NCBI GenBank assembly: GCA_964016885.1
Contig: OZ024743.1
Span: 328,476,001 to 328,540,000 of the forward strand
DNA: 64,000 bases
Direction of reading: 5' to 3'
From: Eledone cirrhosa
Lineage: Eukaryota
Position numbers and translations under genes: made by a program. Shown here one piece after another: positions 2,379 to 63,930 of the stretch (its first letter is position 1; the number at the start of each line of letters is the position of its first letter). Under the pieces are notes generated by a model. It was not told the DNA's origin. It made no database searches and saw only the letters and a program-made list of their open reading frames with translations.

Positions 2379-2385
<7 letters not shown>

Positions 2386-3101
2386 AAAAAAAGATGAAAT
2401 CGAAGATGCAACTGGAGCCTTATTTAAAAATATATATATATATTTATTTGGTTCCTTTACCGGTTTCGCAGTTCTTCTGCTTTTCAAAAGTGGAGTTGAG
2501 ATGGAGGGTCTGTGGTTTTTCTCACATCTGGTTGGTCTCTGAATGTTACTTGTTTTATATGGAAAAAGTGGCAGAATAGATTTCCAAATAAGGGCGCGAA
2601 AATTTAATGAAAACTTGTTCACGTGACAGCCCTAATTTCATTTATAACCAATCAAATTACGTTTATTAAGGAAAAAAACCCCAAAAAAACCCTTCGTGAG
2701 CCCCCCTTTTTTTTAAGTAAAAAGAAATTCAAACACTCATATATGAAAAAACAACCTGTTTGAAGAACTTTGTAACGCGAACTGGCGCGAAATTTATTAT
2801 AATTATTGACCAACCAATCAAATTACTTCTCGAAAAACCTGGCATTTCGAGCCACTTTTTCCATATAAAACAAGTAACATTCAAAGACCAACCAGATGTG
2901 AGAAAAACCACAGACCCTCCATCTCAACTCCACTTTTGAAATGCAGAAGAACTGCGAAACCGGTAAAGGACCAAATAAATATATATATATATTTTTTTAA
3001 ATACGACTCCAGTTGCATTTTCGATTTCATCTTTTTTTCTTTATACTTTCACTCGTGTAGGACACCTCGGTTATTTTTCATTTTGTAAAAAAAAACCTCA
3101 C

Positions 3102-3107
<6 letters not shown>
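2379..3107. mobile_element. Fold-back element family A (hammerhead-bearing, PLE/retrozyme-like) between (TA)n tracts
   Basis: About 2379-2583 is the reverse complement of about 2850-3045; extra tail 3047-3107 on the right only; related copies at 13984, 15009 and 42615. Confidence 0.8.
2455..2490 (-). ncRNA. Minimal type I hammerhead ribozyme, U3-A8 core variant (family A)
   Basis: Minus strand ctt-TTGAAAA-gcag-aagaa-ctgc-GAAA-C-CG-G-TA-aag. Confidence 0.6.
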
Positions 3108-3178: not shown

Positions 3179-3252
3179 ACTTATTCCGGGTTCAATCGGG
3201 GGTAACAACACTTCCTGACGAATGAAACAGTTTTAGTCCTGTAGAAGCTTTT
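3177..3252. mobile_element. Internally deleted derivative of family M
   Basis: Joins the left end (ttattccgggttcaatcgggggtaacaaca) to the right end (cttcctga..gaatgaaacagttttagtcctgtagaagct) of the element at 59338-59537. Confidence 0.7.
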
Positions 3253-3427
3253 ATATATATATATATATCTCTATATATATATTTTGAGTTTATGTTGGTT
3301 GTATACCAACACCTCAGTATGCAGGCTGGAGCACTCGACGAAGTGCGCAGGTTGGTTTGGTTACTCCGGAGTAGTGTAAAATAAAGTTAAATAAAAGTCA
3401 AATGATTAAAGTTTAGCTTCGTTTATT

Positions 3428-3482
3428 ACTGCTATATATATTTCAGTGACAGCCATCTTTGGCTGTGACCTCTTCAGGCAGT
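3428..3482 (-). ncRNA. Type I hammerhead ribozyme (family B, left arm)
   Basis: Minus strand actgc-CTGAAGA-ggtcacagcc-aaagat-ggctgtcact-GAAA-T-ATAT-A-TA-gcagt. Confidence 0.8.
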
Positions 3483-4066
3483 TTGAATTAGTATGGTATA
3501 GACAAGTACATATGTTCTTGAGGTGTATAATATTGTCAATACTCTGATATGCCCAGTTCCTGGTTGGGTTGTTATTTCACTGAGGAACTGGAGTCATATG
3601 AATTCAAACAAACGAATTTCAGTGTCAAAGGTCCTCTTCTCCTCTCATTGTTCAGTTATTAGAACATTCCTCATTCTAAGTGTTGTTATTGTTGGAGTTA
3701 GCTTAAAAATTGATAACATTGATAGAATTCTATAGACTTCTTATTGAGGAATGCTCTCAGAACTGACCAATGGGAAGTTTGACACTTTTTTTTGTTATTT
3801 TGTTCCTTTAACACCTTGTCCCTTCTACCATTTTATCAATTTTTAAGCTAACTCCAACAATAACAACACTTAGAATGAGGAATGTTCTAATAACTGACCA
3901 ATGAGAGGAGAAGAGGACCTTTGACACTGAAATTCGTTTGTTTGAATTCATATGACTCCAGTTCCTCAGTGAAATAACAAACCAACAAGGAACTGGGAAT
4001 ATCAGAGTATTGACAATATTATACACCTAAACAACATATGTACTTGTCTATACCATACTAATTCAA

Positions 4067-4121
4067 ACTGCCTGAAGAGGTCACAGCCAAAGATGGCTGT
4101 CACTGAAATATATATAGCAGT
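4067..4121 (+). ncRNA. Type I hammerhead ribozyme (family B, right arm)
   Basis: actgc-CTGAAGA-ggtcacagcc-aaagat-ggctgtcact-GAAA-TATATA-TA-gcagt; stem I actgc/gcagt. Confidence 0.8.
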
Positions 4122-4165
4122 AATAAACGAAGCTAAACTTTAATCATTTGACTTTTATTTAACTT

Positions 4166-4256
<91 letters not shown>

Positions 4257-4261
<5 letters not shown>

Positions 4262-6277
4262 GTATATATTTATTCTTGTGATTCTATAGACATGTTTTAT
4301 GATATATAGCTCTGATTGTTTAATTTATTAATTTTTCATTGAGCCACAAAGTGACCGGTTGCAAAACACGTATATGTATGTGTGTGTATATATATATATG
4401 TAAACTTTTATGTAATAATCTCCCACTAGGTTGAGATAAAAATTTGGCTGTATTGTGCTGTGCTTTCTAGCAAAAATGCCACCAGTCGTAAGCAACTACC
4501 ACACCCCTTCCAACTTGACCGCGACTACGTCACGATTTTTAGCCATTTTGAAATGAATTTTTGCGCGATCGTTTTGGAAAATTTAATGTCTAGATATGAG
4601 CGAGCTTCCTGAAGAATCCGGCGCTCGAGTTTATATAATTATTACATAATTATTACATAACTCAAAACACGGACGAAACCATGGTAGAGGTATTTAAGTG
4701 TATTCTATTTTCTCCTAGTTTATTTTAAACCTAATTCTGCTTAGTTGACTGTATCTAGGCGATTACGCTGTCGAAATATTCGATAAATATTCCACTACGG
4801 CCGACGCGAAGCGCTAGTTTTGGTTATTTGTCGGAGATTCCTTCATAGAAGCCTCATTCGTATAGCCTGGTCTATTCGATTTTTTATATAGTTAATTATG
4901 CTAATTGGGAGAGGAAATAGTATATATTTTATCTTGTGATTCTATAGACATGTTTTATGATATATAGCTCTGATTGTTTAATTTATTAATTTTTCATTGA
5001 GCCACAAAGTGACCGGTTGCAAAACACGTATATGTATGTGTATGTATATATATATATGTAAACTTTTATATGTAATAATCTCCCACTAGGTTGAGATAAA
5101 AATTTGGCTGTATTGTGCTGTGCTTTCTAGCAAAAATGCCACCAGTCGTAAGCAACTACCACACCCCTTCCAACTTGACCGCGACTACGTCACGATTTTT
5201 AGACATTTTGAAATGAATTCTTGGCGCGATCGTTTTGGAAAATTTAATGTCTAGATATGAGCGAGCTTCCTGAAGAATCCGGCGCTCGAGTTTATATAAT
5301 TATTACATAATTATTGGAAAACTCAAAACACGGACGAACCATGGTAGAGGTATTTAAATGTATTCTATTTTCTCCTAGTTTATTTTAAACCTAATTCTGC
5401 TTAGTTGACTGTATCTAGGCGATTACGCTGTCGAAATATTCGATAAATATTTCACTACGGCCGACGCGAAGCGCTAATTTTGGTTATTTGTCGGAGAATC
5501 CTTCATAGAAGCCTCATTCGTATAGCCTGGTCTATTCGATTTTTTATATAGTTAATTATGCTAATTGGGAGAGGAAATAGTATATATTTTATCTTGTGAT
5601 TCTATAGACATGTTTTATGATATATAGCTCTGATTGTTTAATTTATTAATTTTTCATTGAGCCACAAAGTGACCGGTTGCAAAACACGTATATGTATGTG
5701 TATGTATATATATATATGTAAACTTTTATATGTAATAATCTCCCACTAGGTTGAGATAAAAATTTGGCTGTATTGTGCTGTGCTTTCTAGCAAAAATGCC
5801 ACCAGTCGTAAGCAACTACCACACCCCTTCCAACTTGACCGCGACTACGTCACGATTTTTAGCCATTTTGAAATGAATTCTTGGCGCGATCGTTTTGGAA
5901 AATTTAATGTCTAGATATGAGCGAGCTTCCTGAAGAATCCGGCGCTCGAGTTTATATAATTATTACATAATTATTGGAAAACTCAAAACACAGACGAACC
6001 ATGGTAGAGGTATTTAAATGTATTCTATTTTCTCCTAGTTTATTTTAAACCTAATTCTGCTTAGTTGACTGTATCTAGGCGATTACGCTGTCGAAATATT
6101 CGATAAATATTTCACTACGGCCGACGCGAAGCGCTAATTTTGGTTATTTGTCGGAGAATCCTTCATAGAAGCCTCATTCGTATAGCCTGGTCTATTCGAT
6201 TTTTTATATAGTTAATTATGCTAATTGGGAGAGGAAATAGTATATATTTTATCTTGTGATTCTATAGACATGTTTTA

Positions 6278-6281
<4 letters not shown>
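4257..6281. repeat. Tandem array of three ~660-bp units plus a ~47-bp partial fourth unit, flanked by (TA)n
   Basis: Unit start AAATAGTATATATTT recurs at 4257, 4915, 5575 and 6235; units are near-identical. Confidence 0.95.
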
Positions 6282-6353
<72 letters not shown>

Positions 6354-8639: not shown

Positions 8640-9037
8640 GAATACACGAGAGAGAAAGAAAAAAGAGATAGATAGAGAGATAGGTAGATAGATACATGTA
8701 CGTCTCTCTCTCCCTCTCTCTCTCTCTCTATCTAGCTTTCTCTCTTTTTCTTTCTCTCTCCACACACACACACATATATATATGAATACACGAGAGAAAG
8801 AATATATATCTATATATGTTTCGTTTCTGAATTTGTTTAGCAAGATTCTTTATCTGAAAACGTGTTTTGAAACCGATATTGTTATACTTTGTTATACTTT
8901 GGGTCATGTTGCCAATAAGAAACACAGGCACCAGTTGATTTCACTCCAATTTATTATAAATTAAATTTATAAATTTAAGAATTTATAAATTTCCGGTTGG
9001 TTGGTTGATTCCATAACCGGACGGTTGTTCATATATT

Positions 9038-9080
9038 ATCAAAGTTCTTTCGTCACACATTCTGTGACCTCTTCAGTGAC
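9038..9080 (-). ncRNA. Hammerhead ribozyme motif (family C, left arm)
   Basis: Minus strand gtca-CTGAAGA-g-gtcaca-gaatg-tgtgac-GAAA-G-AA-C-TT-tgat. Confidence 0.65.
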
Positions 9081-9797
9081 TGGGGATTCTTTTCTTTGTT
9101 TTGTGCCTCTCCTTTGTTCTGTCCTACGCCATCTTGTTTTTGTGTGTGTTGCGTGCTTAGTTTGCGCATGTGTTACATCTGGGTGTCTGTGGGTGTTTAT
9201 ATTTGTTTATTTATTTGTTTATTTACATGTTACTGGTTGTTTTTTTTATTCTATGTGTGTGTTTGTTTTCATTTTGTCCTTAATTGCAAGTTGTGATGTT
9301 GCTATTCCATTCATGTTTTGATTTAATTTTGGTTGAAGTTCATTTATGTTTATTGCCTCTGTGATTTGTCTAAACATTGCGTCTTTTCTGTGTGTAGATT
9401 CTATTTTTATTTCTATGTTCTCTATTTTTATTTCTATGTTCTCTAATGTTTCTCAAATTAAAGAACATAGAATAAAAATAGAATCTACACACAGAAAAGA
9501 CGCAATGTTTAGACAAATCACAGAGGCAATAAACATAAATGAACTCCAAAATTAAATAGAAAACATCAATGGAATAGCAACATCACAACTTACAATTAAG
9601 GGCAAAGTGAAAACACACACACACATAGAACAAACAACCAACCAGTAACATGTAAATAAACAAATAAATAAACAAATAAAAACACACACAGACACCCGGA
9701 TGTAACACATGCGCAAACTAAGCCCACAACACACACAGAAACAAGATGGCGTAGGACAGAACAATGGAGAGGCACAAAACAAAGAAAAGAATCCCCA

Positions 9798-9840
9798 GTC
9801 ACTGAAGAGGTCACAGAATGTGTGACGAAAGAACTTTGAC
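9798..9840 (+). ncRNA. Hammerhead ribozyme motif (family C, right arm)
   Basis: gtca-CTGAAGA-g-gtcaca-gaatg-tgtgac-GAAA-G-AA-C-TT-tgac. Confidence 0.7.
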
Positions 9841-9972
9841 AATCTATGAACAACCGTCCGGTTATGCAACCAACCAACCAACCGGAAATTTATAAATTTA
9901 ATTTAGAATAAATTGGAGTGAAAGCAACTGGTGCGTGTGTTTCTTATTGGCAACATGACCCTCCCAAAGCAT

Positions 9973-10014
<42 letters not shown>

Positions 10015-10082: not shown

Positions 10083-11319
<1,237 letters not shown>

Positions 11320-13421: not shown

Positions 13422-13503
<82 letters not shown>

Positions 13504-13507
<4 letters not shown>

Positions 13508-13926
13508 TAAAAAGGAAAAGAAAATGCTGACAAATTTTTCCCAGTGAAAAATAGTTTAATTAGGAATAAGTATGAATTAGTAATAAGTATTAGTTAGTAT
13601 TCAGTTTTAGTTTTAAGTTTTTATCGGTTGCGCCTTTCTTATGCTTTTCAAAAATAATTTTGAGATAGAGTGCTCGTGATTTTTGCTCTAATCTGATTTA
13701 CTCTAATCAGATTAGAGCAAAAATCACGAGCACACTATCTCAAAATTATTTTTGAAAAGCATAAGAAATGCGCAACCGGTAAAAACTTAAAACTAAAACT
13801 GAATACTAACTAATACTTATTACTAATTTATACTTATTCCTAATTAAATTATTTTTCAATGGGAAAAATTTGTCAGCATTTTCTTTTCCTTTTTACTAAT
13901 ATATCACAACTCGTGTGTCACACCTC

Positions 13927-13932
<6 letters not shown>
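13504..13932. mobile_element. Fold-back element family E (degenerate hammerhead)
   Basis: Near-perfect palindrome centred at about 13697; short right tail; right arm reads TTGAAAA-gcat-aagaa-atgc-GCAA-CCGG-TA-aaaa. Confidence 0.8.
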
Positions 13933-13983
<51 letters not shown>

Positions 13984-13988
<5 letters not shown>

Positions 13989-14520
13989 AAAAAGATGAAA
14001 TCGAAAATGCAACTGGAGTCTTTTTTTTTTTAAATATATATTTATTTGGTTCCTTTACCGGTTTCGCAGTTCTGCTTTTCAAAAGTAGAATTGAGATGGA
14101 GGGTCTGTGGTTTTTCTCACATCTGGTTTGTCTTTGAATGTTACTTCTGTTTTATATGGAAAAAAGCGGCTCGAAATGCTAGGTTTTTAGAGAAGTAATT
14201 TGGTTGGTTGGTGAATAAGTATAATAAATTTCGCTCCAGTCGCGTTACAAAGTTCTTATTATATTTGCCTTAAAAAAAAAGGGGGGGGGGGGGGCTCAAG
14301 TTGTTTTTTCATATATGAGTGAAGTTTGGTTGGTTGATGCAGTCGGGTGAATAAGCACATCAGCTTTCGCGCCAGTTTGTATTTGAATTTCTTTTTACTT
14401 TAAAAAAAGGTGGCTCACGAAGGCTTTTTTTTTTTATAAATGTAATTTGATTGGTTATGAATGAAATTATGACTGTCACGTGAACAAGTACATTAAATTT
14501 CGCGGTCGTATTTTGGAATT
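13984..14520 (-). mobile_element. Family A copy (single arm plus internal region)
   Basis: Matches 2379-2583 and the reverse complement of the 2590-2850 spacer; hammerhead stem II loop shortened. Confidence 0.75.
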
Positions 14521-14624
14521 TTTTTGTAGCCATTTAGAGAATTTTGTGACAAACAAAAGATAATGGTCAAGAAAAAGGGATGGAGAAAGTTGTTCTCAGT
14601 ATGACTGATGTGCTGAACTATATA

Positions 14625-14687
<63 letters not shown>

Positions 14688-14709
14688 CATACATACATAC
14701 ATACATACA

Positions 14710-14954
14710 TTGAAAAGGAGAATATTTATGCAGAACTGATGAGAAATCTGCAGATACTCCACCCTGATTACACCTTCAGATTTATGCCTGTGATTATTGG
14801 GGCACTGGGATATGTTAGTAACTGCCTCAATACAAATCTTGAGAAGCTAGGCTTCACAGGAACAGAAAGAACACAACTAGTTAGGAAACAACAAGTACAA
14901 TCCATTAATGGAACAGTAAAAATATGTAAAACATTCCAAAAATTTTGCATCTAA
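14710..14954 (+). pseudogene. 3' fragment of an RLE-type non-LTR retrotransposon ORF (R4/Dong-like restriction-like endonuclease C-terminus)
   Basis: Translation EKENIYAELMRNLQILHPDYTFRFMPVIIGALGYVSNCLNTNLEKLGF contains the K..Y..L...PVIIGALG motif. Confidence 0.7.
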
Positions 14955-15008
14955 TAACTGCATATACACATGTACAGATACAAAGCATATACATATGCAC
15001 ACATGAAA

Positions 15009-15487
<479 letters not shown>

Positions 15488-15624
15488 GGTTTGTTGGTTC
15501 ACCACTGGATAGAACTGGTCATTCCGTATGGTCAACTTCGATGTATTATTATAGAGAGCACTCAACGTAATGCAACTCACCCGTCTTCGTTTGTGTAGTT
15601 GGTGTTGCGAGTACGGAGTTAATT

Positions 15625-15752
15625 ATTATAAAATAACAGGAGGCTGGACTGGTGTAAATCCTTGATGTCACCGGATTCATACTGAACCCGGTCATTGAAA
15701 TGATCATAATATAATAAACCCTTCAAGGATTTACACCAGTCCAGCCTCCTGT

Positions 15753-15760
<8 letters not shown>
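15625..15760. mobile_element. Short inverted-repeat element family F
   Basis: ATAAAATAACAGGAGGCTGGACTGGTGTAAATCCTTGA and its inverse; interior matches the reverse complement of 59560-59665. Confidence 0.7.
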
Positions 15761-15844
<84 letters not shown>

Positions 15845-16297
15845 GGGCGGGTGAAATTCCCGAGATCCATGGACGAGTTCTCTCCAGCGGTCTCTGCTCC
15901 TCATTATCGCTGCCATGTCCTGCGTCTCCAAGAGACCAGTGTCTGTCCTTAGGGCATCAACATATGTTAACCTCGGTCTTCCTCTTCCAGTGTGTCCATG
16001 CAGGGGATCCCACAGGAGCACTGAGTGCAGTGTCAACTCTGGATGTCGGTGAGCATGTCCAGCTACCATCAGTCTCCTCTGTGCCACTCTTGAGCTGACT
16101 TTTAGGAGGCTCCCGTACAGCTCTGTGTTCTTCATCCTCAGTGTTTACTGATTAATGTTCAGAGCCATTCTCAGCATTCTCGTGTAGCACTCATCCACCA
16201 TCTGAGTGAGTTTCTTGGTCAGTGTCCAAGTCTCAGACCCGTACAGCAGCACAGACTCCACTACAGCAACGAAGAGACGGATCTTCAGCTCTTTACG
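15845..16297 (-). pseudogene. RTE-like LINE 3' end (RT C-terminal region)
   Basis: RRLMVAGHAHRH..VLLWDP..GRGRPRLTYVDAL..DRWRELV, typical of the RTE-clade C-terminus; ends in (TA)n. Confidence 0.8.
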
Positions 16298-16451: not shown

Positions 16452-16754
16452 TAGATAGATAGATAGATATATTTAAGACGACATCAGAAGACCGTACTGG
16501 AAGATATGATTCCTTGATATCATTATACATATTTCAATGGCCAGCTCCATCATCCAATTATGATACAAGACAGAACGGCCTCATCTGGTAACTTTGATAG
16601 TGTTACGAAGACGGGATTATGTAGAACCCATACTTATAGAATATAGGGAAAATAGAATAGTTGAAAAATTGAAAACTGAAGTAGGAAAAAGGAAAAGAAA
16701 ATCTGACTTGAAGACCGGAAATACTGAAAAAAATTATCACCCCCACCATATCCT

Positions 16755-16914
16755 CTCACGAATACCATTATAACGAATTTTTCAGTATAACGAAAATTTT
16801 TCAATCTACTGCCACATGTTCGATGTGTTAGGTCAATCTCGTTATAAAGAATTTTTCGTTACAACGAATTTTTTTATACCCCGTGAATTTCGTTATAACG
16901 GAATTTTACTGTAT
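16755..16914. mobile_element. Tc1/pogo-type MITE remnant
   Basis: Right end CGTTATAACGGAATTTTACTG-TA (TIR type CAGTAAAATTCCGTTATAACG) with repeated TATAACGAA motifs. Confidence 0.55.
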
Positions 16915-17033
16915 ATATTTAAGATACTCCTTTTGCAGATTCTTTTTCCTTTTTCCTTCTTCACTTTTTAATTTCCCTATATTCTATGATAAGTATGGGT
17001 TCTACATAATCCCGTCTTCGTAACACTGTCAAA

Positions 17034-17107
17034 GTTACCAGATGAGGCCGTTCTGTCTTGTATCATAATTGGATGATGGAGCTGGCCATTGAAATATGTA
17101 TAGTGAT
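17034..17107 (+). ncRNA. Hammerhead-like motif, A4 variant with long stem II (family G); mirror at about 16519-16592
   Basis: gttac-CAGATGA-ggcc..ggcc-att-GAAA-T-ATGT-A-TA-gtgat. Confidence 0.5.
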
Positions 17108-17429
17108 ATCACGGAATCATATCTTCCAGTACGGCCTTCTGTTGTCGTCTTAAATATATATTGTATAACTATACTTCATAGATCCTCCAGTTCAAATTTT
17201 GGTCGGGTCACCCTATCATCCTTCCAGTGTTGACAAAATAAACTACCAGTTTTCATCAAATATCTATATAATATCCTTCCATACCGGCTTCTTTTATTCT
17301 ATCATTTGTCAGACACTACTTTTAATATTATTTATTTTCATATTTTCCCTTACAAACAATTATATATATATATATATATATATAAATTAAAAATATTAAC
17401 AAAAATAGACATTCGTGTGATCAAGTATA

Positions 17430-19152: not shown

Positions 19153-19391
19153 ACAGAGGAGGCTGAGGTTAGCTGGACCTGCTCACCGACATCCAGAGTT
19201 GACACTGCACTCAGTGCTTCTGTGAGAGCCCCTACATGGAAACACTGGAAGAGGAAGACCAAGGTTAGCATATGTTGCTTCCCTAAGGACAGACACTGGT
19301 CTCTTGGAGACGCAGGACATGGCAGCGATAATGAGGGACAGAGACCGCTGGAGAGAACTCGTCCATGGATCTCTGGAATTTTACCCGCCCT

Positions 19392-19393
<2 letters not shown>
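19153..19393 (+). pseudogene. RTE-like LINE 3' end, same family as 15845-16297
   Basis: Homologous to the reverse complement of 15845-16085 (ccctaaggacagacactggtctcttggagacgcaggacatggcagcgataatgagg). Confidence 0.8.
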
Positions 19394-19431
<38 letters not shown>

Positions 19432-21372: not shown

Positions 21373-21588
21373 TGTGTGTGTGTATGTGATTATGTGCTTG
21401 TGTTTATGTTATATATATATATATATACACATATATATATATATATACACTGGAATTGAATAATCAAAACCGTAGCGGTATGTCACATATCAAATCCTAT
21501 ATTTTGTCTGATGAAAACGTACTTAAACACCATTGTACCTTTGAAATGTATATGAGAAGATTTTTCATTTATTAACATTTTGAATAAT
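21371..21588 (+). mobile_element. Family H-like fragment with hammerhead motif; inverted partner at 23775-24008
   Basis: ttttgt-CTGATGA-aaacgtac..gtaccttt-GAAA-TGTATA. Confidence 0.65.
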
Positions 21589-21797
21589 ATATATATATAT
21601 ATATATATATTTATTAAAATAACAGATTAAAGTTTAAGCAAAGAATCGCTGCTTTCACCCTTAACGGGATCTTCTGAAACTAACAAAGTCAATCTGTAAA
21701 CGCAGAAGTGGATATTTCAAAAAACGTTGCAACCGGAGGAAGACAGAAAGACGATATCGAGCCCTCTTTGGATTTTAGTCTTCAAATTTATTATTAT

Positions 21798-21852
<55 letters not shown>

Positions 21853-21855
<3 letters not shown>

Positions 21856-22557
21856 TTTCTAAATTTGTTTAGCAAGATTCTTTATCTGAAAACGTGTGTT
21901 GAAACCGATATTGTTATACTTTGGGAGGGTCATGTTGCCAATAAGAAACACACACACCAGTTGCTTTCACTTCAATTTATTATAAATTAAATTTATAAAT
22001 TTCCGGTTGGTTGGTTGGTTCCACAACCAGACGATTGTTCATATATTGTCAAAGTTCTTTCGTCACACATTCTGTGACCTCTTCAGTGACAGGAGATTCT
22101 TTTCTTTGTTTTTGTGCCTCTCCTTTGTTCTGTCCTACGCCATCTTGTTTTTGTGTGTGTTGTGTGCTTAGTTTGCGCATGTGTTACATCCGGGTGTCTG
22201 TGTGTGTTTATATTGTTTATTTATTTGTTTATTTACATGTTACTGGTTGGTTGTAACAGGCACCTGGATGTAACACATGCGCAAACTAAGCACACAATAC
22301 ACACAAAAACAAGATGGCGTAGGACAGAACAAAGGAGAGGCACAAAAACAAAGGAAAGAATCCCCAGTCACTGAAGCGGTCACAGAATGTGTGTCCAAAG
22401 AACTTTGACAATATATGAACAATCGTCTGGTTGTGGAACCAACCAACCAATCGGAAATTTATAAATTCTTAAATTTATAAATTTAATTTATAATAAATTG
22501 AAGTGAAAGCAACTGGTGCGTGTGTTTCTTATTGGCAACATGACCCTCCCAAAGTAT

Positions 22558-22562
<5 letters not shown>
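21853..22562. mobile_element. Fold-back family C, second copy
   Basis: Inverted around about 22250; intact hammerhead motif at 22048-22090 (-), mutated one at 22367-22409 (+). Confidence 0.85.
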
Positions 22563-22588
<26 letters not shown>

Positions 22589-22592
<4 letters not shown>

Positions 22593-22957
22593 TAAGAGGA
22601 ATTCCAACTTTGTCTGATTTACTCGTTTTATTTACAATTCTTTAAAATTTATTGTTAAGTGTTAATTGAACAAGTACTTTCATGCTTTCGCAATCTTCAG
22701 GTTCATAATGTGTGGTGACAGTCAAGTTTGCAATTTTCAACTGTTGAAAATTGCAAACTTGACTGTAACCACACATTATGAACATGAAGATTGCGAAAGC
22801 ATGAAAGTACTTGTTCAATTAACACTTAACATTTAATATTCTATCATACTATCATTTCCTTATAATACCATTATAAATTTTAAAGGATTGTAAATAAAAC
22901 GAGTAAATCAGACAAAGTTGGAATTCCTCTTATTAATATAATCTTCTATACACAATC
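22589..22957. mobile_element. Fold-back element family K
   Basis: Palindrome centred at about 22742 (ttttcaactgttgaaaa); about 40-bp indel in the right arm. Confidence 0.85.
22667..22705 (-). ncRNA. Hammerhead ribozyme (family K)
   Basis: Minus strand tgaac-CTGAAGA-t-tgc-GAAA-gca-t-GAAA-G-TA-C-TT-gttca; the right-arm copy at 22779-22817 has C3A. Confidence 0.7.
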
Positions 22958-22970
22958 ATACACACCCGTG

Positions 22971-23725
<755 letters not shown>

Positions 23726-23774
23726 ATACTTTGGGAGGGTCAGAAACGAAATATATATATATATATATATATAT

Positions 23775-23926
23775 ATTATTCAAAATGTTAATATATGAAA
23801 AATATTCTCATAATCAAAATATATATTTTATTATACATATTTCAAAGGTACAATGGTGTTTTCATCAGACAAAATATATGATTTGATATGTGACATACCG
23901 CTACGGTTTTGATTATTCAATTCCAG

Positions 23927-23974
<48 letters not shown>

Positions 23975-24008
23975 ACATAAACACACGCACATAATCACAT
24001 ACACACAT
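23775..24008 (-). mobile_element. Family H-like fragment, inverted partner of 21371-21588
   Basis: Minus strand ttttgt-CTGATGA-aaacaccattgtaccttt-GAAA-TATGTA-TA-ataaaa. Confidence 0.65.
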
Positions 24009-25430: not shown

Positions 25431-25558
25431 ATTGTCTGGGATCCAGAAACCTTTGGTAATGGAGTAGTTATATTTTACTACCTTATTACCAGTAAGTTAA
25501 GTAGCTCAATGTAAAAACATCAGATGATTTACAGAGCAGTTATATGAATATATATATA

Positions 25559-26218: not shown

Positions 26219-26759
26219 GGAGAGAGAGAGAGAGAGACAGTGAGAGAAGGATAGAGATATATATAGAGAGAGGGGATGGAAGCGGATAAGTTAGAAAGAA
26301 CAAGAGGTATGTGAGTGAGAATAAGAGAGGGGGAGTGTGTGTGTTAGTGTTGTATGAGAGAGATAGAGAGAGTGAGAGAGTGTGAGAGAGAGAGGGTGAG
26401 GGAGAGAGGGAGAGGGTGAGAGATAGAGGGAGAGGGAGTGAGAGAGTAAGAGAGGGAGAGAGAGGTGTCACGACAATTAAATAGTCGACAATTTAAACCT
26501 CCATTACAGTGTTAACGATATTGGGGTGTGGTGGGGGTTAATGGTGTCGGGTGGCAGCGGGTGGTGGTGGTGGGCGTGGTGGTGGTGGTGGTGGTGGTGG
26601 TGGTGGTGATAGTAGTGGTGGTGGTGGTGGTAGTAGTGGTGGTGTTGGCGGTGGTGGTGGTGATGTTGGTGTTGGTGGTGGTGGTGGTGTTGGTGTTGGT
26701 GGTGATGGTGGTGGTGATGGTGGTGTTGGTGGTGGTGGTGATGGTGGTAGTGGTGATGG

Positions 26760-34560
<7,801 letters not shown>

Positions 34561-36321
34561 GTGGTTGTGGTGTTGGTGTGGTGGTGGTGGTGGTGGCGGT
34601 TGTGGTGGTGGTGGTGGTGGTGGTGGTGTGGCGGTGGCGGTGGCGGTGGTGGTGGTGGTCGTGGTGGTGGTATTGGTGTGGTGGTGGTGGTAGTGGTGGT
34701 GGTGGTAGTGGTGGTGGTGGTAGTGGTGGTGGTGGTAGTGGTGGTGGTGGTGCTGGTGTGGTGGTGGTGGTGGTGGCGGTTGTGGTGGTGGTGGTGGTGG
34801 TGGTCGTGGTGGTGGTAGTGGTGTGGTGGTGGTGGTAGTGGTGGTGGTGGTGTTGTGGTGGTGGTGGTGGTAGTGGTGGTGGTGTGGCGGTGGCGGTGGC
34901 GGTGGTGGTGGTGGTGGTGTTGGTGGTGGTGGTGGTGGTAGTGGTGGTGGTGGTGGTTGTGGTGTTGGTGGTGGTGGTAGTGGTGGTGGTGGTGGTGGTG
35001 GTGGTGGTGGTGGTGGTGTTGGTGGTGGTGGTGGTGGTAGTGGTGGTGGTGGTGGTTGTGGTGTTGGTGGTGGTGGTGGTGGTGTTGGTGGTGTTGGTGG
35101 TGGTGGTGGTGGTGGTGGTGGTGGTGGTGGTGTTGGTGGTGTTGGTGGTGGTGGTGTGGTGGTGGTGGTGGCGGTGGTGGTGGTGGTGTTGGTGGTGTTG
35201 GTGGTGGTGGTGGTGGTGGTAGTGGTGGTGGTGGTGGTGGTGGTGATGTTGGTGTGGTGGTGGTGGTGGTGGTGGTAGTGGTGGTGGTGGTGGTGGTGGT
35301 GATGTTGGTGTGGTGGTGGTGGTGGTGGTGGTAGTGGTGGTGATGTTGGTGTGGTGGTGGTGGTGGTAGTGGTGGTGGTGGTGGTGGTGGTGGTGTGGTG
35401 GTGGTGGTGGTGTGTTAGTGTGTCATTGTTTAAAATGAGACAATACATATAAATACGTTATGGTTGTCGATATTGTGTGAATAATATTTTGGTGAAGTTT
35501 CATTAACGATTCATCACCTCCCCACCCTCTCCTCCTTGCACTACCCTCCCCCACCCTCTCCTCCTTGCACCGCCCCCTCCCACACACTCTTTTTCTTGAC
35601 CCACCACCCACAAACTATTTCGGAAGCTTTATCAATGTTTGCCCGTCACCACCCCCACGCTACCATCACCCCCACATCCTTCACCACAGCCACCAACTTA
35701 CACCACGCTCCCCCCCGCTCCCCCACCGCCATCACCCCATCCTATACCGTCACCACCACCACCACCACCATCACCACAACCGCCGCCACCACCACCACCA
35801 CCACCACCACCATCATAACAACCACCATCACCACACCACTACCACCACCACCACCACTACCACCACCAATATAAAAAACACTCACTGAATCAGACAACTG
35901 GCCGAAATTTAGGAGACAAAGGTTCGAATCCATGTCCAGTTCCTTCTTTCTTTCTTTCTTTCTTTCTTTCCTTCTTTCTTTCGTTCTCTCCTTTCTTTTT
36001 TTCTTTCTTTCTTTCTTTCTTTCTTTCTTTCCGTCTGTCTCTCTTTCTTTCTTTTATTTATCTATTTATTGTCTTCTTTTATTCCCTGTTAATTGAATCC
36101 CACTAAATATTAATTAAAAGGTCAACAACCTCCCTTTGAAACCAAACAATTATTTTTATAACACATTATAGCAACAACAGTGATTTAGGTTTTAGTTGTA
36201 AAGTAACTCTCCCCCGTCCCTTACAACAGCGGCTTGGGAGAGAGTTCTAGTAATGTAATGGGTCTTTTATTGTGGCTGTTTTATTGGGGTTGAATAAGGA
36301 GGAGTTAGATGCTATAGACCA

Positions 36322-36762
36322 TCTAGGGTGGGAGTTAGACAACATACAGGGTGGGAATTAGACAACATCTAGGGTGGGAGTTAGACACGATAGATCAACA
36401 TCTGGGGTGGGAGTTAGATAACATCTAGGGTGGGAGTTAGACACGATAGATCAACATCCAGGGGGGGGGGGAAGTTAGACAACATCCAGGGTGGGAGTTA
36501 GACAATATACAGGGTGGGAGTTAGACAACATCCAGGGGGGAAGTTAGACAACATCCAGGGTGGGAGTTAGACAACATACAGGGTGGGAGTTAGACAACAT
36601 ACAGGGTGGGAGTTAGACAACATACAGGGTGGGAGTTAGACAACATACAGGGTGGGAGTTAGACAACATCCAGGGTAGGAGTTATACACTATAGACCAAC
36701 ATCCAGGGTGGGAGTTAGACATGATAGACCAACATCCAGGGTGGGAGTTAGACATGATAGAC
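36322..36762. repeat. ~23-bp minisatellite AGGGTGGGAGTTAGACAACATMC
   Basis: Tandem copies visible. Confidence 0.9.
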
Positions 36763-37397
36763 CAGTGGTTCTCAAAGTGGGTTCTGCAAAAGAGTGTCTA
36801 GGGTTCTGTCAAAAAAGGTAGAGGAGTATATTTATATTACGACCATATAGGAGTAGTAAACTTTGGGGTTCCCCCAAAGTTTCTGAATCGAAAGGGTTCC
36901 ACGTTTGAAAAGGTTTGTGAAACCCTACTATAGACCAACATCCAGAACTGGGAAAGACAGAGATCCCTGGAAAAAAGAATGCCCAAGTACTGTGTAAGGA
37001 TTTAAAGAAGGGGACCTTCTGGCATGGAGAAGCAGGAACAGGCTGTAGATTCGCTCACCACAGACACCATGTTAGCTGCACCCAAACTTCTTATCCCAAA
37101 TACTCCAACCAAAACTAGTAGGGGCATATAACAGAGGAAATATACTGATGTTACACGTACCACCCCGATAAAAGGGGGCAGTATGTAGATGTAGTGAAGA
37201 CTGTAACGGTGGAGCAATAATCTTTTTATAGCAGAAGAGATTACGAAACAGAGTCAGCTACATCAGCTACATCAGATACAAAGCCAAAGTCATTCACACC
37301 AGCATTGAACACCACCAGAAATAAAGGACACAGAGTTGCCACCCCTGCCACCCACATAAATATTGTATCAGCAGTAGAGGACATTAAGAATTAATTG

Positions 37398-39417
37398 GGT
37401 TTCATGAGGTACAGTATATTAATAGTTAATGTGGTTTCATGTGGTACAGTATATTAATAGTTAATGTGGTTTCATGTGGTACAGTATATTAATAGTTAAT
37501 GTGGTTTCATGTGGTACAGTATATTAATAGTTAATGTGGTTTCATGAGGTACAGTATATTAATAGTTAATGTGGTTTCATGAGGTACAGTATATTAATAG
37601 TTAATGTGGTTTCATGTGGTACAGTATATTAATAGTTAATGTGGTTTCATGTGGTACAGTATATTAATAGTTAATGTGGTTTCATGTGGTACAGTATATT
37701 AATAGTTAATGTGGTTTCATGAGGTACAGTATATTAATAGTTAATGTGGTTTCATGAGGTACAGTATATTAATAGTTAATGTGGTTTCATGTGGTACAGT
37801 ATATTAATAGTTAATGTGGTTTCATGTGGTACAGTATATTAATAGTTAATGTGGTTTCATGAGGTACAGTATATTAATAGTTAATGTGGTTTCATGAGGT
37901 ACAGTATATTAAATAGTTAATGTGGTTTCATGTGGTACAGTATATTAATAGTTAATGTGGTTTCATGTGGTACAGTATATTAATAGTTAATGTGGTTTCA
38001 TGAGGTACAGTATATTAAATAGTTAATGTGGTTTCATGTGGTACAGTATATTAATAGTTAATGTGGTTTCATGAGGTACAGTATATTAAATAGTTAATGT
38101 GGTTTCATGAGGTACAGTATATTAATAGTTAATGTGGTTTCATGTGGTACAGTATATTAATAGTTAATGTGGTTTCATGTGGTACAGTATATTAATAGTT
38201 AATGTGGTTTCATGTGGTACAGTATATTAATAGTTAATGTGGTTTCATGTGGTAGAGTGTATTAATAGTTAATGTGGTTTCATGTGGTACAGTATATTAA
38301 TAGTTAATGTGGTTTCATGTGGTACAGTATATTAATAGTTAATGTGGTTTCATGTGGTAGAGTGTATTAATAGTTAATGTGGTTTCATGTGGTAGAGTGT
38401 ATTAATAGTTAATGTGGTTTCATGTGGTACAGTATATTAATAGTTAATGTGGTTTCATGTGTATATTAATAGTTAATGTGGTTTCATGTGGTACAGTATA
38501 TTAATAGTTAATGTGGTTTCATGTGGTAGAGTGTATTAATAGTTAATGTGGTTTCATGTGGTAGAGTGTATTAATAGTTAATGTGGTTTCATGTGGTACA
38601 GTATATTAATAGTTAATGTGGTTTCATGTGTATATTAATAGTTAATGTGGTTTCATGTGGTAGAGTGTATTAATAGTTAATGTGGTTTCATGTGGTACAG
38701 TATATTAATAGTTAATGTGGTTTCATGTGGTACAGTATATTAATAGTTAATGTGGTTTCATGTGGTAGAGTGTATTAATAGTTAATGTGGTTTCATGTGG
38801 TACAGTATATTAAATAGTTAATGTGCTTTCATGTGGTACAGTATATTAATAGTTAATGAAGTTTCATGTGGTACAGTGTATTAATAGTTAATATGGTTTC
38901 ATGTGGTACAGTATATTAATAGTTAATGTGGTTTCATGAGGTACAGTATATTAATAGTTAATGTGGTTTCATGTGGTACAGTATATTAAATAGTTAATGT
39001 GGTTTCATGTGGTACAGTATATTAATAGTTAATGAAGTTTCATGTGGTAGAGTGTATTAATAGTTAATATGGTTTCATGTGGTACAGTATATTAAATAGT
39101 TAATGTGGTTTCATGTGGTACAGTATATTAAATAGTTAATGTGGTTTCATGTGGTACAGTATATTAATAGTTAATGTGGTTTCATGTGGTACAGTATATT
39201 AATAGTTAATGCAGTTTCATGTGGTAGAGTGTATTAATAGTTAATATGGTTTCATGTGGTACAGTATATTAATAGTTAATGTGGTTTCATGTGGTACAGT
39301 ATATTAATAGTTAATGAAGTTTCATGTGGTAGAGTGTATTAATAGTTAATATGGTTTCATGTGGTACAGTATATTAATAGTTAATGCAGTTTCAAGTGGA
39401 AGTGTATTAATAGTTAA
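37398..39417. repeat. 35-bp minisatellite GTGGTTTCATGTGGTACAGTATATTAATAGTTAAT, about 57 copies
   Basis: Head-to-tail units without spacers. Confidence 0.97.
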
Positions 39418-40561: not shown

Positions 40562-40879
40562 ATAATTTTATTAAAATACAAATATTAATAAAATAGATGT
40601 TCTTGTGATCAATTAAATTTTATTACACATATTTCAGAGGTACAACAGTACGTCATCATCAGATAAAATAAAATGATACATGACATACCCTGAGATGTTA
40701 AATGGTTAAAATTTAAATCTTAACCATTTAACATAGATGTTATTGATCACAATAACATCTATTTTATTAATATTTGTATTTTAATATTAATAACTCTGGA
40801 AATTATTTTTTTCTGTAGAGTGCTTCCAATCTACTGTAAAACTCATTCTTTGATATACTCATTGAATCTTGTTTAACTC

Positions 40880-40885
<6 letters not shown>
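40562..40885. mobile_element. Family H fold-back with hammerhead at 40618-40668 (-)
   Basis: Minus strand ttttat-CTGATGA-tgacgtac-tgtt-gtacctct-GAAA-TATGTG-TA-ataaaa; hairpin centre about 40715; homologous to 17385-17540. Confidence 0.7.
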
Positions 40886-42598: not shown

Positions 42599-42614
42599 TA
42601 TATATATATACTCA

Positions 42615-42820
42615 CAGATGTGAGAAAAACCACAGACCCTCCATCTCAACTCTACTTTTGAAAAGCAGAAGAACTGCGAAACCGGTAAAGGAACCAAATA
42701 AATATATATATTTAAAAAAAAATAAGACTCCAGTTGCATTTTCGATTTCATCTTTTTTTCTTTATACTTTCACTCGTGTAGGACACCTCGGTTATTTTTC
42801 ATTTTGTAAAAAAACCTCAC

Positions 42821-42827
<7 letters not shown>
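42615..42827 (+). mobile_element. Family A single arm plus tail, hammerhead at 42655-42690
   Basis: ctt-TTGAAAA-gcag-aagaa-ctgc-GAAA-CCGG-TA-aag; matches 2893-3107. Confidence 0.8.

Positions 42828-44588: not shown

Positions 44589-44592
<4 letters not shown>
43667..44592. mobile_element. Non-autonomous Tc1/pogo-type DNA transposon (MITE)
   Basis: TA-CAGTCGAGTCCGCTTAAGAGTATA left end; TATACTTTTGAGCGGACT right end; repeated TAAGAGTATA subterminal motifs; inverted end pieces recur at 45635-45705 and 46545-46707. Confidence 0.7.
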
Positions 44593-44636
<44 letters not shown>

Positions 44637-44917
44637 GTAAGTATGTATGAATGTATACGTACATACATATATGTACGCCGTAATTTGGGCTGTTTGTTTG
44701 TTTACAAACAAACCGAGCATTATAATAAATGTTCGGTAAACCGATACGTGCATATATATATGTGTGCATGTATGTATATATATACATACTACTGTACGTC
44801 TGTATACATATATGTATGTACGTATACATACATACATACATACATACATACATACATACATACATTTAAGTAAGTGCCGTACCAAGAGTGAGAAATGAAA
44901 TTTCGTTTCATTCTATT

Positions 44918-44987
<70 letters not shown>

Positions 44988-45518: not shown

Positions 45519-45639
<121 letters not shown>

Positions 45640-46067: not shown

Positions 46068-46335
46068 ATACCTTCCTGTCAAATGGTTGAACGTCTGAAA
46101 GTATATATTTTCCTTATGCATATTAACGGCTGAGCAGCGTAATTTGCATATCGAGTGAGTTAATCGGCTGGGTTACCGAAAACGATAAACGGAAAAAATG
46201 AAAAAAAATGAAAAAATATAAGTATGTATACAAGTATATACTTTCCTTATGCATATTAACGGCATATTAACAGCCGTTAATATGCATAAGGAAAGTATAT
46301 ACTTTCAGACGTTCAACCATCTGGCAGGAAGGTAT

Positions 46336-50344: not shown

Positions 50345-50467
50345 AATGTAGGAGGTGAGTTTTATTGTAGTACAATAAAGCAATGCAGATATCGGAGATT
50401 GCATGATGATGCTTGTTTTGAAATGCGCATAATAAAATACATGGAACTCTTTTAACCATCTTTTGAT

Positions 50468-50472
<5 letters not shown>
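50345..50472. mobile_element. Internally deleted derivative of the 63351-63772 fold-back
   Basis: Left 55 bp match 63351-63400; right part matches 63700-63770. Confidence 0.75.
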
Positions 50473-50506
<34 letters not shown>

Positions 50507-59337: not shown

Positions 59338-59537
59338 GTTATTCCAGGTTGAATCGGAGGTAACAACAGTAAGTAAGGTACTCAATACATAGCAGAGTAT
59401 AAATGTTTTAATATAGAACAGCTTCTACAGGACTAGAACTGTTTCATTCGTGAGTAATCATCAGGAAGCTCAGGGCTTCCTGATGATTTCTAGCGAATGA
59501 AACAGTTCTAGTCCTGTAGAAGCTCTTCTATATTAAT
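59338..59537. mobile_element. Fold-back element family M: two back-to-back hammerheads
   Basis: Palindrome centred at about 59472; left-only tail 59338-59405; relatives at 3177 and 62423-62570. Confidence 0.8.
59473..59525 (+). ncRNA. Type I hammerhead ribozyme with full stem III (family M)
   Basis: gggcttc-CTGATGA-t-ttc-tagc-gaa-t-GAAA-CAG-ttctagtc-CTG-TA-gaagctc; mirror at 59421-59469 (-). Confidence 0.75.
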
Positions 59538-62400: not shown

Positions 62401-62573
62401 TATACACACATATATATCATATTTAATATAGAAAGAACTTGTATAGGACTAGAACTGTTTCATTCGTATGAAATTATCAGGGTCCTTTCTATATCAAATA
62501 TGATGTTCACACTCTACTAATATATTGAGTACCTTATTAACTGTGGCTACCCCTGATTTAACTCGGGATATAC

Positions 62574-62701: not shown

Positions 62702-62707
62702 TATATA

Positions 62708-63240
62708 GATTTTGAGTATATGTTGGTTGTATACCAACACCTCAGTATACAGGCTGGAGCACTCGACGAAGTGCGCAGGTTGGTTTGGTTATTCCGGAGT
62801 AATGTAAAATAAAGTAAAATAAAAAGTCAAATGTTTAAAATTTAGCTTCGTTTATTACTGCTATATATATTTCGGTGACAGCCATCTTTGGCTGTGACCT
62901 CTTCAGGCAGTCCGAATTAGTGTGGTATAGACAAGTACATATGTTGTTGAGGTGTATAATTTTGTCAATACTCTGATATGCCCAGTTCCTGGTTGTGTTG
63001 TTAGTTCACTGAGGAACTGAAATCATAATATGACTCCAGTTCCTCAGTGAAATAACAACCCAACCAGGAACTGGGCATATCAGAGTATTGACAAAATTAT
63101 ACACCTCAACAACATATGTACTTGTCTATACCACACTAATTCGGACTGCCTGAAGAGGTCACAGCCAAAGATGGCTGTCACCGAAATATATATAGCAGTA
63201 ATAAACGAAGCTAAATTTTAAACATTTGACTTTTTATTTT

Positions 63241-63247
<7 letters not shown>
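62708..63247. mobile_element. Fold-back family B, second copy, with hammerheads at 62857-62911 (-) and 63145-63199 (+)
   Basis: Inverted around about 63027; actgc-CTGAAGA-ggtcacagcc-aaagat-ggctgtcacc-GAAA-TATATA-TA-gcagt. Confidence 0.85.
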
Positions 63248-63350: not shown

Positions 63351-63352
<2 letters not shown>

Positions 63353-63772
63353 GTACGAGGTGAGTTTTATTGTAGTACAATAAAGCAATGCAGATATCGG
63401 ATAAGAAGCACTCTACAGTTTGTGGGACTGGAGTATGCATAATATAAGATCAAAATATGGTTAAAGGAGTTCCATATATTTTATTATGCGCATTTCAAAA
63501 ACAAACATCATCAAACAATAATATTTGTGTTTTCATCAGATAAAACAGGAGAACATGATATGAAGGCTAAAAAACACTTGTTGATAGTGCAGTTTTAAAT
63601 CAACATATGTTGATTTAAAACTGCACTATCAACAAGTGTTTTTTAGCCTTCATATCATGTTCTCCTGTTTTATCTGATGAAAACACAAATATTATTGTTT
63701 GATGATGTTTGTTTTTGAAATGCGCATAATAAAATATATGGAACTCCTTTAACCATCTTTTGATCTTATATT
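63351..63772. mobile_element. Fold-back element (family H group), spacerless palindrome with hammerheads at 63479-63545 (-) and 63668-63734 (+)
   Basis: Centre CAACA-TA-TGTTG at 63606/63607; ttttat-CTGATGA-aaaca..tgttttt-GAAA-T-GCGC-A-TA-ataaaa. Confidence 0.85.
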
Positions 63773-63930
63773 ATATATATATATATATATATACATGTAA
63801 AGTTATATTTAAAATTGTTGGGTTACAACTAGTAAATATTTATAACTGATATAAAAGCACTCGACAAATATTTGGAGTATATTTACAATATTAAATAAAT
63901 GGAAAATTATATTTATAAAACCATATTTAT

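Follow-up and report, generated by a model that had tools for sequence, protein, structure and literature searches.

Head-to-head Penelope-like element ends in (TA)n carry one tail per insertion, which may reflect priming at both ends of the target

The DNA at 8818-9980 is a head-to-head pair of 5'-truncated Penelope-like element (PLE) ends that lies in (TA)n. Across the window (the whole 64-kb stretch of DNA that we analysed), we identified 18 two-ended insertions from 12 families, and every one of them has one tailed end and one tail-less end. We propose, with a little more belief than doubt, that priming at both ends made these 5'-truncated insertions of canonical hammerhead-bearing PLEs. 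Inverted pairs, the one-sided tail, and the bias towards (TA)n are already published, so most of this finding is known. Relative to the literature that we covered, the measured overlap of the upstream site with its target, the strict pairing of the two types of ends, and hints of two independent cDNAs are together a modest addition. The evidence base is a single 64-kb window with hand-curated ends. The elements themselves are unremarkable: decayed repeats without a known function.

The window is 62% AT, of animal type, and dense in repeats, with abundant (TA)n. Two-ended insertions were curated by hand after a local inverted-repeat scan (Table 1). In the pair at 8818-9980 (C1), the 3' ends of both copies face outward into TA repeats, and the palindrome spans 8883-9983 with a self-identity of 88%. 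Another copy from the same family (C2) has a tail that matches the C1 tail at 96%. The long arm of C2 is about 54 nt longer at its 5' end, and its short arm (22256-22565) stops at the same ATAT as in C1. C1 has a longer tail end, with which C2 and C3 share 1 nt (the chance level).

In family C, an ATG-opened frame begins 8 codons before the short end and continues into the tail (9955-9980 and 21853-21932). This is probably the start of the PLE's ORF. In C4, which is a divergent relative, the codons in this frame (23650-23673) differ from those of family C at two synonymous sites only. Because C4 is much diverged and yet its last codons differ only synonymously, this suggests that the short-end site is early in the ORF. 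In Pen2a from A. vaga, the corresponding site is likewise early in the ORF (PMC3846280).

Table 1. Features of the C1 locus and PLE insertions elsewhere in the window
Feature	Positions	Strand	Remarks
C1 tail, from upstream (tail-less) to downstream end site	8818..8875	-	adjoins degenerate TA flank
Internal ATAT, mirrors short-arm end	8876..8879	-	long arm of C1
C1 long arm, 5'-truncated PLE 3' end, sense leftward	8876..9447	-	
Predicted type I minimal hammerhead, C1 long arm	9036..9084	-	core 9076; predicted cut after 9042
GIY-YIG C-terminus-like peptide	9321..9416	-	spacing R-x3-EA-x2-I-x4-P-x-LN; frame breaks just after
C1 fold, unpaired spacer of 9 nt	9448..9456	.	
C1 short (tail-less) arm	9457..9980	+	ends at ATAT, then (AT)n
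Predicted type I minimal hammerhead, C1 short arm	9794..9844	+	core 9802; predicted cut after 9836
C1 element/flank overlap, 4-nt ATAT	9977..9980	+	
C1 target flank (AT)n	9977..10014	.	
C2, whole	21853..22565	.	tail 21853-21907; long arm to 22254
C3, mini copy	23718..23751	.	~25 nt of short end and ~10 nt of tail end, joined over TCA
C4, divergent solo relative of family C	23091..23673	+	hammerhead core 23427; ends at family C's ATAT
A1	2379..3107	.	short arm left, TATA overlap 4; tail 3046-3107
A2, no inverted partner, ends at tail-less site	13982..14519	-	
A4, tailed	42604..42826	+	5' end with 6-bp hairpin only
B1	3281..4172	.	tail 3281-3376; short-end overlap 2
B2	62706..63247	.	tail as in B1; overlap 3 at a short end that is 4 nt upstream of that in B1
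D1	10117..11185	.	tail 10117-10284; short end meets (TC)n, then (TA)n
E1	13499..13931	.	left short arm, overlap 6; right tail 27 nt
G1	16467..17360	.	left short arm, overlap 6; right extension 201 nt, single copy
H1	63351..63774	.	left tail 88 nt; short-end overlap 3
H2, mini copy	50346..50474	.	last 51 nt of tail and ~76 nt of short arm, overlap 5
I1	22585..22972	.	left short arm, overlap 5; right tail 32 nt
J1	15490..15761	.	137-nt tail on left; TGA at junction
K2	40568..40884	.	left short arm in degenerate flank; tail right
M1	59338..59536	.	left tail 70 nt; short-end overlap 1
M2, mini copy	3179..3250	.	~30 nt of tail end and short-arm end
M3	62412..62572	.	left short arm with ribozyme region; long arm is ~20 nt plus tail
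Q2	44631..44921	.	~40 nt short arm, overlap 2; tailed long arm; TGTA at junction

Our descriptor for hammerhead ribozymes gave 19 hits in the window, versus 0-3 hits in each of 12 block shuffles, and it predicts type I minimal hammerheads in families B, C, D, G, H, J, K, M, and Q. The hammerheads of families A and E have the U3-A8 core and were found with a looser score that has no shuffle control, and family I has the core boxes only. The ribozymes point outward in both arms, with the pairs on opposite strands. Rfam at its gathering score gave 0 hits across the window, so the ribozyme calls rest on our own descriptor. We also noted U3-A8 core variants at 2935, 13752, 14082, 15115, and 42658 (families A and E) and other core variants (CCGAAGA in D at 11103, CAGAUGA in G at 17039, and CCGAUGA at 51073), all of which are below the Rfam threshold.

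The long arm of C1 also contains a peptide that resembles the C terminus of a GIY-YIG endonuclease. This is the sole full match to the spacing across the six frames of the window, and its position and direction fit. By eye, the spacing agrees with the C-termini of Poseidon and Nematis (Fig. S2 of PMC8557442). Pfam gave no match to this peptide, and a word-index search with 38 candidates gave none at E of 10 or better. The two hits from phmmer were rejected, as these are internally repetitive and unrelated proteins without PLE features. These PLEs probably had a C-terminal endonuclease. Among the 195 frames of at least 90 amino acids in the window, we did not recognise a reverse transcriptase by eye; all copies are truncated. 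The window contains neither a source copy of these PLE families nor an empty site.

We considered three other classes of elements. The Naiad clade, which is marked by an N-terminal endonuclease and the lack of a canonical hammerhead, was rejected because full hammerheads are present and because family C has an endonuclease-like remnant at the 3' end of the ORF. These are not non-LTR retrozymes, as the hammerhead pairs are on opposite strands instead of in direct tandem units. A MITE or a foldback DNA transposon does not account for the one-sided tail, the variable centre, and the variable short end.

The two-ended insertions comprise 13 palindromes with both ends intact, from 11 families (A1, B1, B2, C1, C2, D1, E1, G1, H1, I1, J1, K2, and M1), and five short copies (C3, H2, M2, M3, and Q2, with Q as the twelfth family). 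We excluded Q1, whose short arm is interrupted by a later insertion near 46540; A3/A5, whose right end is interrupted by J1; the copy at 49629-50330, which is rearranged; and three small hairpins (2279, 18771, and 40246) that have neither a ribozyme pair nor TA flanks. The initial annotation of this DNA claimed that one arm is always tailed, and this holds in 18/18 insertions (13/13 intact palindromes and 5/5 short copies), with tails on both sides in none of them. A symmetric ribozyme-bearing palindrome would have been equally easy to detect, and the inverted-repeat scan found none. If the two ends were chosen freely (50:50), then the probability that all of them would be mixed in 11 families is 4.9e-4.

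The tails are 27-201 nt long (55-96 nt in families A, B, C, H, and M). All eight tails that had been listed from the sequence are present, to within a few bases: A 3046-3107, B 3281-3376, C1 8818-8875, C2 21853-21907, D 10117-10284, G 17160-17360, M 59338-59407, and H 63351-63438. A second copy confirms that the tail is element sequence in A, B, C, H, M, and Q, and partly in D and K; the tails of E, G, I, and J lack this confirmation. When we searched beyond the short-end flanks for displaced copies of 12 tails, the only matches were in other copies of the elements. The tail had also been described as a property of the 3' pLTR. The one-sidedness stands, and the interval that separates two start sites is a better description of the tail. 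The families had been called unrelated, which is not correct for A and E: these are about 75% alike over 75-79 nt and have a ribozyme core variant in common. Folding gave a z score below -2 in 3/12 tails only (B, D, and I), so we do not claim a general hairpin or other structure in the tails. We noticed splice-acceptor-like pyrimidine-rich stretches that end in TAG in the tails of A (3046-3070), K (40795-40820), and H (63395-63425), which may or may not act as such, and the motif CTGTAGAGTGCTTC is common to the H and K tails. Family D also includes a fragment that consists of tail alone (D2, 25475-25545); it reaches the internal TATAT from the other side and ends precisely there.

Several arrangements of these copies are more complex. 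The ends of A2 and A3 (13982-15488) are in the same orientation and bracket a fragment, with a short inverted piece of A beyond. This fragment may be the 3' end of a non-LTR element with a restriction-like endonuclease, although Pfam was negative. The layout resembles the pLTR-captured DNA-pLTR arrangement described in PMC3846280. Inverted, tail-to-tail copies of another ribozyme-bearing end, along with upstream flanks, are at 21377-21610 and 23753-24007 (2.1 kb apart), and C2, I1, C4, and C3 are nested between them. We had considered 21611-21800 as a displaced tail of the element at 21450-21586 and dropped this idea, as this stretch has its own hammerhead on the opposite strand (21676).

The window also contains other repeats. 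Small inverted repeats at TA that resemble DNA transposons are present as pieces at 16760-16915, 43675-43855, 44526-44591, 45637-45702, and 46528-46707. A piece of this kind cuts the short arm of Q1, and another may sit in the spacer of G1. Two sequences at 15845-16110 and 19153-19394 are presumably the 3' ends of RTE-like non-LTR elements, and these copies also end in (TA)n. Tandem repeats include a trimer of about 660 bp (4257-6286), a 3.9-kb duplication (26683-35412), 58 copies of a 35-bp minisatellite (37383-39417), and a 23-bp minisatellite (36300-36764). Copies of a tRNA-like SINE core, whose motif we take to resemble octopus SINEs, are at 7441, 25312, 39761, 48190, 51517, 54814, and 61148.

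(TA)n or a repeat derived from it is present at nearly all ends of the PLE insertions. To quantify the overlap of the tail-less end with its target, we took an ideal (TA)n flank, scored the alternating T/A run that the element shares with it, and compared this score to random breakpoints in the same arm, either anywhere in the arm or within 30 nt (200,000 simulations for each null). For the first copy of each of nine families, the overlaps were 4 (A), 2 (B), 4 (C), 6 (E), 6 (G), 3 (H), 5 (I), 4 (J), and 1 (M). The sum is 35 nt, versus 9.2 expected if breakpoints were anywhere (13/200,000) or 9.3 expected if they were within 30 nt (0/200,000). For the four families that were outside the earlier list of motifs (B, H, I, and J), the sum is 14 versus 4.0 expected (575 and 129/200,000). 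If E is dropped because it is related to A, the sum is 29 versus 8.1-8.3 expected (159 and 4/200,000). The excess persists if we condition on an overlap of at least 1 nt (30/200,000). This first test omitted D, whose flank is (TC)n, K, whose flank is degenerate, and Q. With these three added, and with D and K scored as zero, the sum is 37 versus 12.9 expected (131 and 7/200,000), and if we use the lowest copy from each family, it is 28 versus 12.9 expected (2841 and 1014/200,000). (In the extended test, the anchor coordinates for K and Q were 1-2 nt off, which shifts only the local null window and the printed value for "used.") Across 23 copies, with values entered by hand and ambiguous copies scored as 0, the overlap is at least 4 nt in 11, at least 2 nt in 16, and 0-1 nt in seven. 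The overlap signal is real, though it is not uniform among copies.

The initial annotation stated that the short arm stops at an internal TATA and runs straight into (TA)n. Aligning the junctions of these 23 copies upholds a stop at a TA-rich motif, as the overlap beats chance, and it does not uphold a uniform TATA junction. M1 ends 3 nt past the motif that was proposed for family M (taaTATAgaac), with an overlap of 1 nt; B1 and B2 overlap by only 2 and 3 nt; A3 stops 6 nt beyond TATA, in a flank that is not TA; and J2 and K2 have no clean overlap with the flank. The flank begins with (TC)n in D and with (TATC)n in G.

Could the overlap arise after insertion, if the internal TA run grew and displaced one tail, or could it be a chance likeness of AT-rich junctions? 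The window, at 62% AT, is full of (TA)n, and TA tracts do expand inside these elements (the centre of A3/A5, 15159-15442). We still consider this very improbable, because no displaced tails were found beyond the short-end flanks (12 tails searched) and because the excess survives the local-composition null, a restriction to overlaps of 1 nt or more (30/200,000), and worst-case scoring.

In 6/12 families, the tail-less end passes by longer TA runs upstream (14 nt in A, 10 in Q, 9 in B, 6 in C, 6 in H, and 5 in M; D was omitted from this count because its flank is (TC)n). We therefore rejected the rule that the short end is at the first or the longest TATA. Because longer runs are skipped, something other than pairing must determine where the end falls, with pairing choosing only the register. 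The short end also shifts between copies, by 4 nt in B, 3 nt in H, and about 7 nt in M, and it is mostly back in the TA register, which implies that the end is made anew at each insertion. In each family, a zone that is 56-178 nt downstream of the ribozyme core is thus fixed, and TA pairing seems to pick the base within it. These results bear on the earlier suggestion that the second end is joined when the element's internal TATA anneals to the target. Pairing with the target at the short end has statistical support. A join by annealing is not favoured: purified Poseidon starts reverse transcription at the tail-less end itself (PMC11167929), longer TA runs are skipped in 6/12 families, and solo copies end at the same site.

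The two arms of a copy share variants that distinguish it from other copies. As the initial annotation had noted for family C, copy-specific variants are present in both arms (4 substitutions and 1 indel in 306 columns), and the fold point varies (the loop at 9448-9456 in C1 versus the junction at 22254/22256 in C2). In family B, we found 8 substitutions and 1 indel in 217 columns. Together, the four-arm alignments of B and C have 14 differences that are shared within a copy and 0 real differences that are shared by arm type (a single nominal "arm" difference is at a ragged end of the alignment). So, the arms derive from a single template or from closely related sisters, and a palindrome does not move as one unit. 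If they did move as finished units, either like MITEs or via read-through RNA, then each family would have inherited its ends and overlap from one founder. This would explain why four C copies share one exact short end, as do A1 and A2, and why the mini copies retain both ends. We give this idea very little credence, given that arm-specific variants are absent from B and C while 14 copy-specific ones are present, that short ends vary between copies in B, H, and M, and that fold points vary.

The arms are not always equivalent. In A1, C2, and Q2, the long arm exceeds the short arm in length (in A1 by about 280 nt at the 5' end, with TGGC at the inversion junction). Conversely, J1, M3, C3, H2, and M2 have short-arm sequence that the long arm lacks; in J1, this amounts to about 65 nt and includes the ribozyme region. 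In C3, H2, and M2, the two pieces cover separate stretches of the element, and the long arm is part of the tail only. B1 and G1 are ambiguous as to the class of asymmetry. Also, a 16-nt stretch in family C, which is flanked by 13-nt direct repeats, is present in the long arm of C1 and the short arm of C2 and is missing from the short arm of C1 and the long arm of C2. Unless DNA was lost later, the extra short-arm sequence in J1, M3, C3, H2, M2, and C2 shows that these short arms were not simply copied from the long arms. Four solo copies without an inverted partner (A2, C4, J2, and K1) end at or next to the tail-less site. We compared five asymmetric inversion junctions to their natural continuations, and four of them (A1, J1, C3, and Q2) have a 3-4 nt overlap; C2 has none. 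These overlaps fit either the joining of two cDNA ends or later repair.

Near-symmetric folds, with spacers of 0-10 nt, are present in 8/18 insertions (9/19 if Q1 is counted). The arms of H1 differ at 1/162 sites. In B2, whose fold sits on a palindrome that already exists in B1, all four differences between the arms are private to the long arm and are within 30 nt of the fold (62995-63060), with 0 in the other 187 columns; we noticed this clustering after the fact. Across 12 pairs, 20/87 differences are within 35 nt of the fold, versus 12.2 expected (p = 0.013, or 0.09 without B2). The fold spacers of M1 (59468-59472), Q1 (46262-46270), and E1 (13700-13705) look like templated insertions, that is, short re-copies of sequence that is a few bases away.

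These observations bear on a fold-back mechanism, which spells out the suggestion in the initial annotation and which we consider unlikely. In this scenario, a single event of target-primed reverse transcription (TPRT) starts from the tail, the cDNA folds back and is copied in the direction of the tail, and the TA-rich 3' end of the nascent strand anneals to the second target end. This would account for one tail per insertion, for variants that are common to both arms of a copy, for the near-symmetric folds (8/18) and the B2 fold at a natural palindrome, for the 6-bp hairpin at the 5' end of A4, and for the excess overlap. However, later deletions would be needed to explain J1, M3, C3, H2, M2, the indel in C2, and the four solo copies that have no tail. 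It also leaves unexplained why upstream TA runs of 9-14 nt lose to runs of 2-4 nt, and in B2, the short arm did not copy the 4 private changes of the long arm near the fold.

Alternatively, a hairpin or duplex intermediate might be cut at the internal TA run by the element's TA-preferring endonuclease and then joined to the target, so that the overlap would reflect a cleavage preference rather than annealing. Resolution of an intermediate by the endonuclease was proposed as the origin of the tail in PMC8557442, and the Poseidon of Anolis carolinensis (PAc) nicks AT-rich DNA of its own pLTR (PMC11167929). Such a cut would yield a fixed zone with a TA-like context, and the halt of the tail-only D2 at the same TATAT from the opposite side suits it. 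We consider this scenario quite improbable, as it has the same trouble as fold-back with 5'-extended short arms and solo tail-less copies, and as later work in vitro places a start site for reverse transcription at the tail-less end (PMC11167929).

If instead both ends are primed, then we propose that the GIY-YIG endonuclease would nick both strands of a (TA)n tract. One 3'-OH would prime reverse transcription from the downstream start site, which would give the tailed arm, and the other would prime from the upstream start site, 27-200 nt away, which would give the tail-less arm. The RNA-protein complex would fix the zone of the upstream site, and the exact base would be set by 2-6 nt of pairing between the TA end of the primer and an AU run in the RNA. 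Both cDNAs would extend toward the template's 5' end, whether they copy the same RNA or sister RNAs that a single source copy produced. They would then stop and be joined 3' end to 3' end over a short complementary or palindromic sequence, and repair would fill in the rest. If a single RNA were copied, both cDNAs might stop at the same broken end, which would give symmetric folds; this variant requires that the RNA survive the first pass. To our knowledge, the reverse transcriptases of PLEs lack RNase H. Parts of this scheme are from the literature (PMC11167929), where a start site lies at each end of the tail, both strands are nicked and extended, and a dimer is predicted. We infer the use of both sites in one event, the pairing of the primer, the single RNA, and the joining step.

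Priming at both ends is favoured by the one-of-each ends in 18/18 insertions, which a 50:50 choice would rarely give; by the excess overlap along with the skipping of longer TA runs; by the solo tail-less copies A2, C4, J2, and K1; by arm asymmetry in both directions along with the crosswise 16-nt indel; and by the behavior of PAc in vitro, where both strands are extended and the tail lies between two start sites for reverse transcription. Other observations count against it. The near-symmetric folds (8/18) and the fold of B2 at a palindrome are what snap-back gives, while two cDNAs would yield near-symmetric folds only if both stop at the same place. The overlap is just 0-1 nt in 7/23 copies. 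And later deletion within an unstable palindrome could give every asymmetry as well as the crossed indel.

More tentatively, and here our doubt exceeds our confidence, a dimeric PLE protein might copy one RNA twice per event. Each start site would use one of the nicked strands, a few A-U pairs would hold the upstream primer in place, and the leading cDNA would be displaced by the enzyme that follows. A shared stop would then lead to near-symmetric palindromes, and copy-specific variants would be shared by the arms, with independent copying errors and exactly one tail. If this is true, it would be a joint explanation for the inverted repeat, the tail, and the microsatellite bias of PLEs.

How do these insertions compare to known systems? 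In canonical EN+ PLEs (Penelope/Poseidon, Neptune, Nematis, and Hydra), as here, copies are 5'-truncated and have a head-to-head inverted and truncated copy, a tail at one end, palindromes at inverted junctions, and (TA)n targets. PMC8557442 describes the inverted 5'-truncated copy, a tail of 30-40 bp that is often at a single end, and targeting of (TA)n. PMC3846280 describes a tail on one inverted pLTR and palindromes at head-to-head junctions, which were read as self-priming on an antisense template. Both papers treat the mechanism that forms head-to-head repeats with a one-sided tail as an open question. In PMC4209133, minimal hammerheads are reported to occur in pairs, with 100-700 bp between the two and one on each strand, and a U3-A8 core is also reported; the type I minimal pairs on opposite strands are common to our elements, and the U3-A8 core is present here in A and E. 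In contrast to the 30-40 nt tails of canonical EN+ PLEs, those in the window (27-201 nt) are mostly longer, and the window has neither a reverse transcriptase nor a full endonuclease gene by which a clade could be assigned. PMC9977147 added nothing on the ends of PLEs.

The closest biochemical parallel is PAc (PMC11167929), in which two start sites for reverse transcription bound the tail, both strands are cleaved and extended, and a dimer is predicted. Shared features are an AT-rich target and a tail that is delimited by two end sites, both of them downstream of the ribozyme. Both target strands can serve as primers for PAc in vitro, as we propose for the elements here. The upstream site is 56-178 nt from the ribozyme core here, whereas synthesis by PAc begins at +111-118, counted from an ORF start that lies at the ribozyme. 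In PAc, the start is an AC-rich stem loop without homology to the cut DNA, and the later steps were left unvalidated, whereas we see an overlap of 2-6 nt in 16/23 copies. The main text of PMC11167929 draws no tie between the two sites and inverted pairs. In the literature that we covered, target overlap at the tail-less end and the pairing of one end of each type are undescribed (older Penelope papers in subscription journals and figures S1B and S2 of PMC11167929 were outside of this coverage).

L1 twin priming, as summarised in PMC2912911, involves microhomology at the internal site and at the inversion junction, with non-overlapping segments. As in our proposal, a single RNA serves as template for primers from both ends of the target, and microhomology is seen at the internal site and at the inversion. 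The non-overlapping layout is found here in C3, H2, and M2 only, and there are junction overlaps in A1, J1, C3, and Q2. Unlike L1, there is no poly(A) priming here, the internal site is fixed for each family instead of scattered, and in most copies both cDNAs cover the same sequence, which leads to long palindromes. Animal non-LTR retrozymes (bioRxiv 10.64898/2026.07.22.740005) are also short, non-coding, derived from PLEs, and have type I hammerheads. However, retrozymes are direct tandem repeats, whereas we see inverted pairs or solo ends, one of which has a coding remnant. If both start sites are used once per insertion, with pairing at the upstream site in families that target TA, then this could be tested directly in vitro and across genomes, and it would qualify the claim that priming by PLEs needs no homology.
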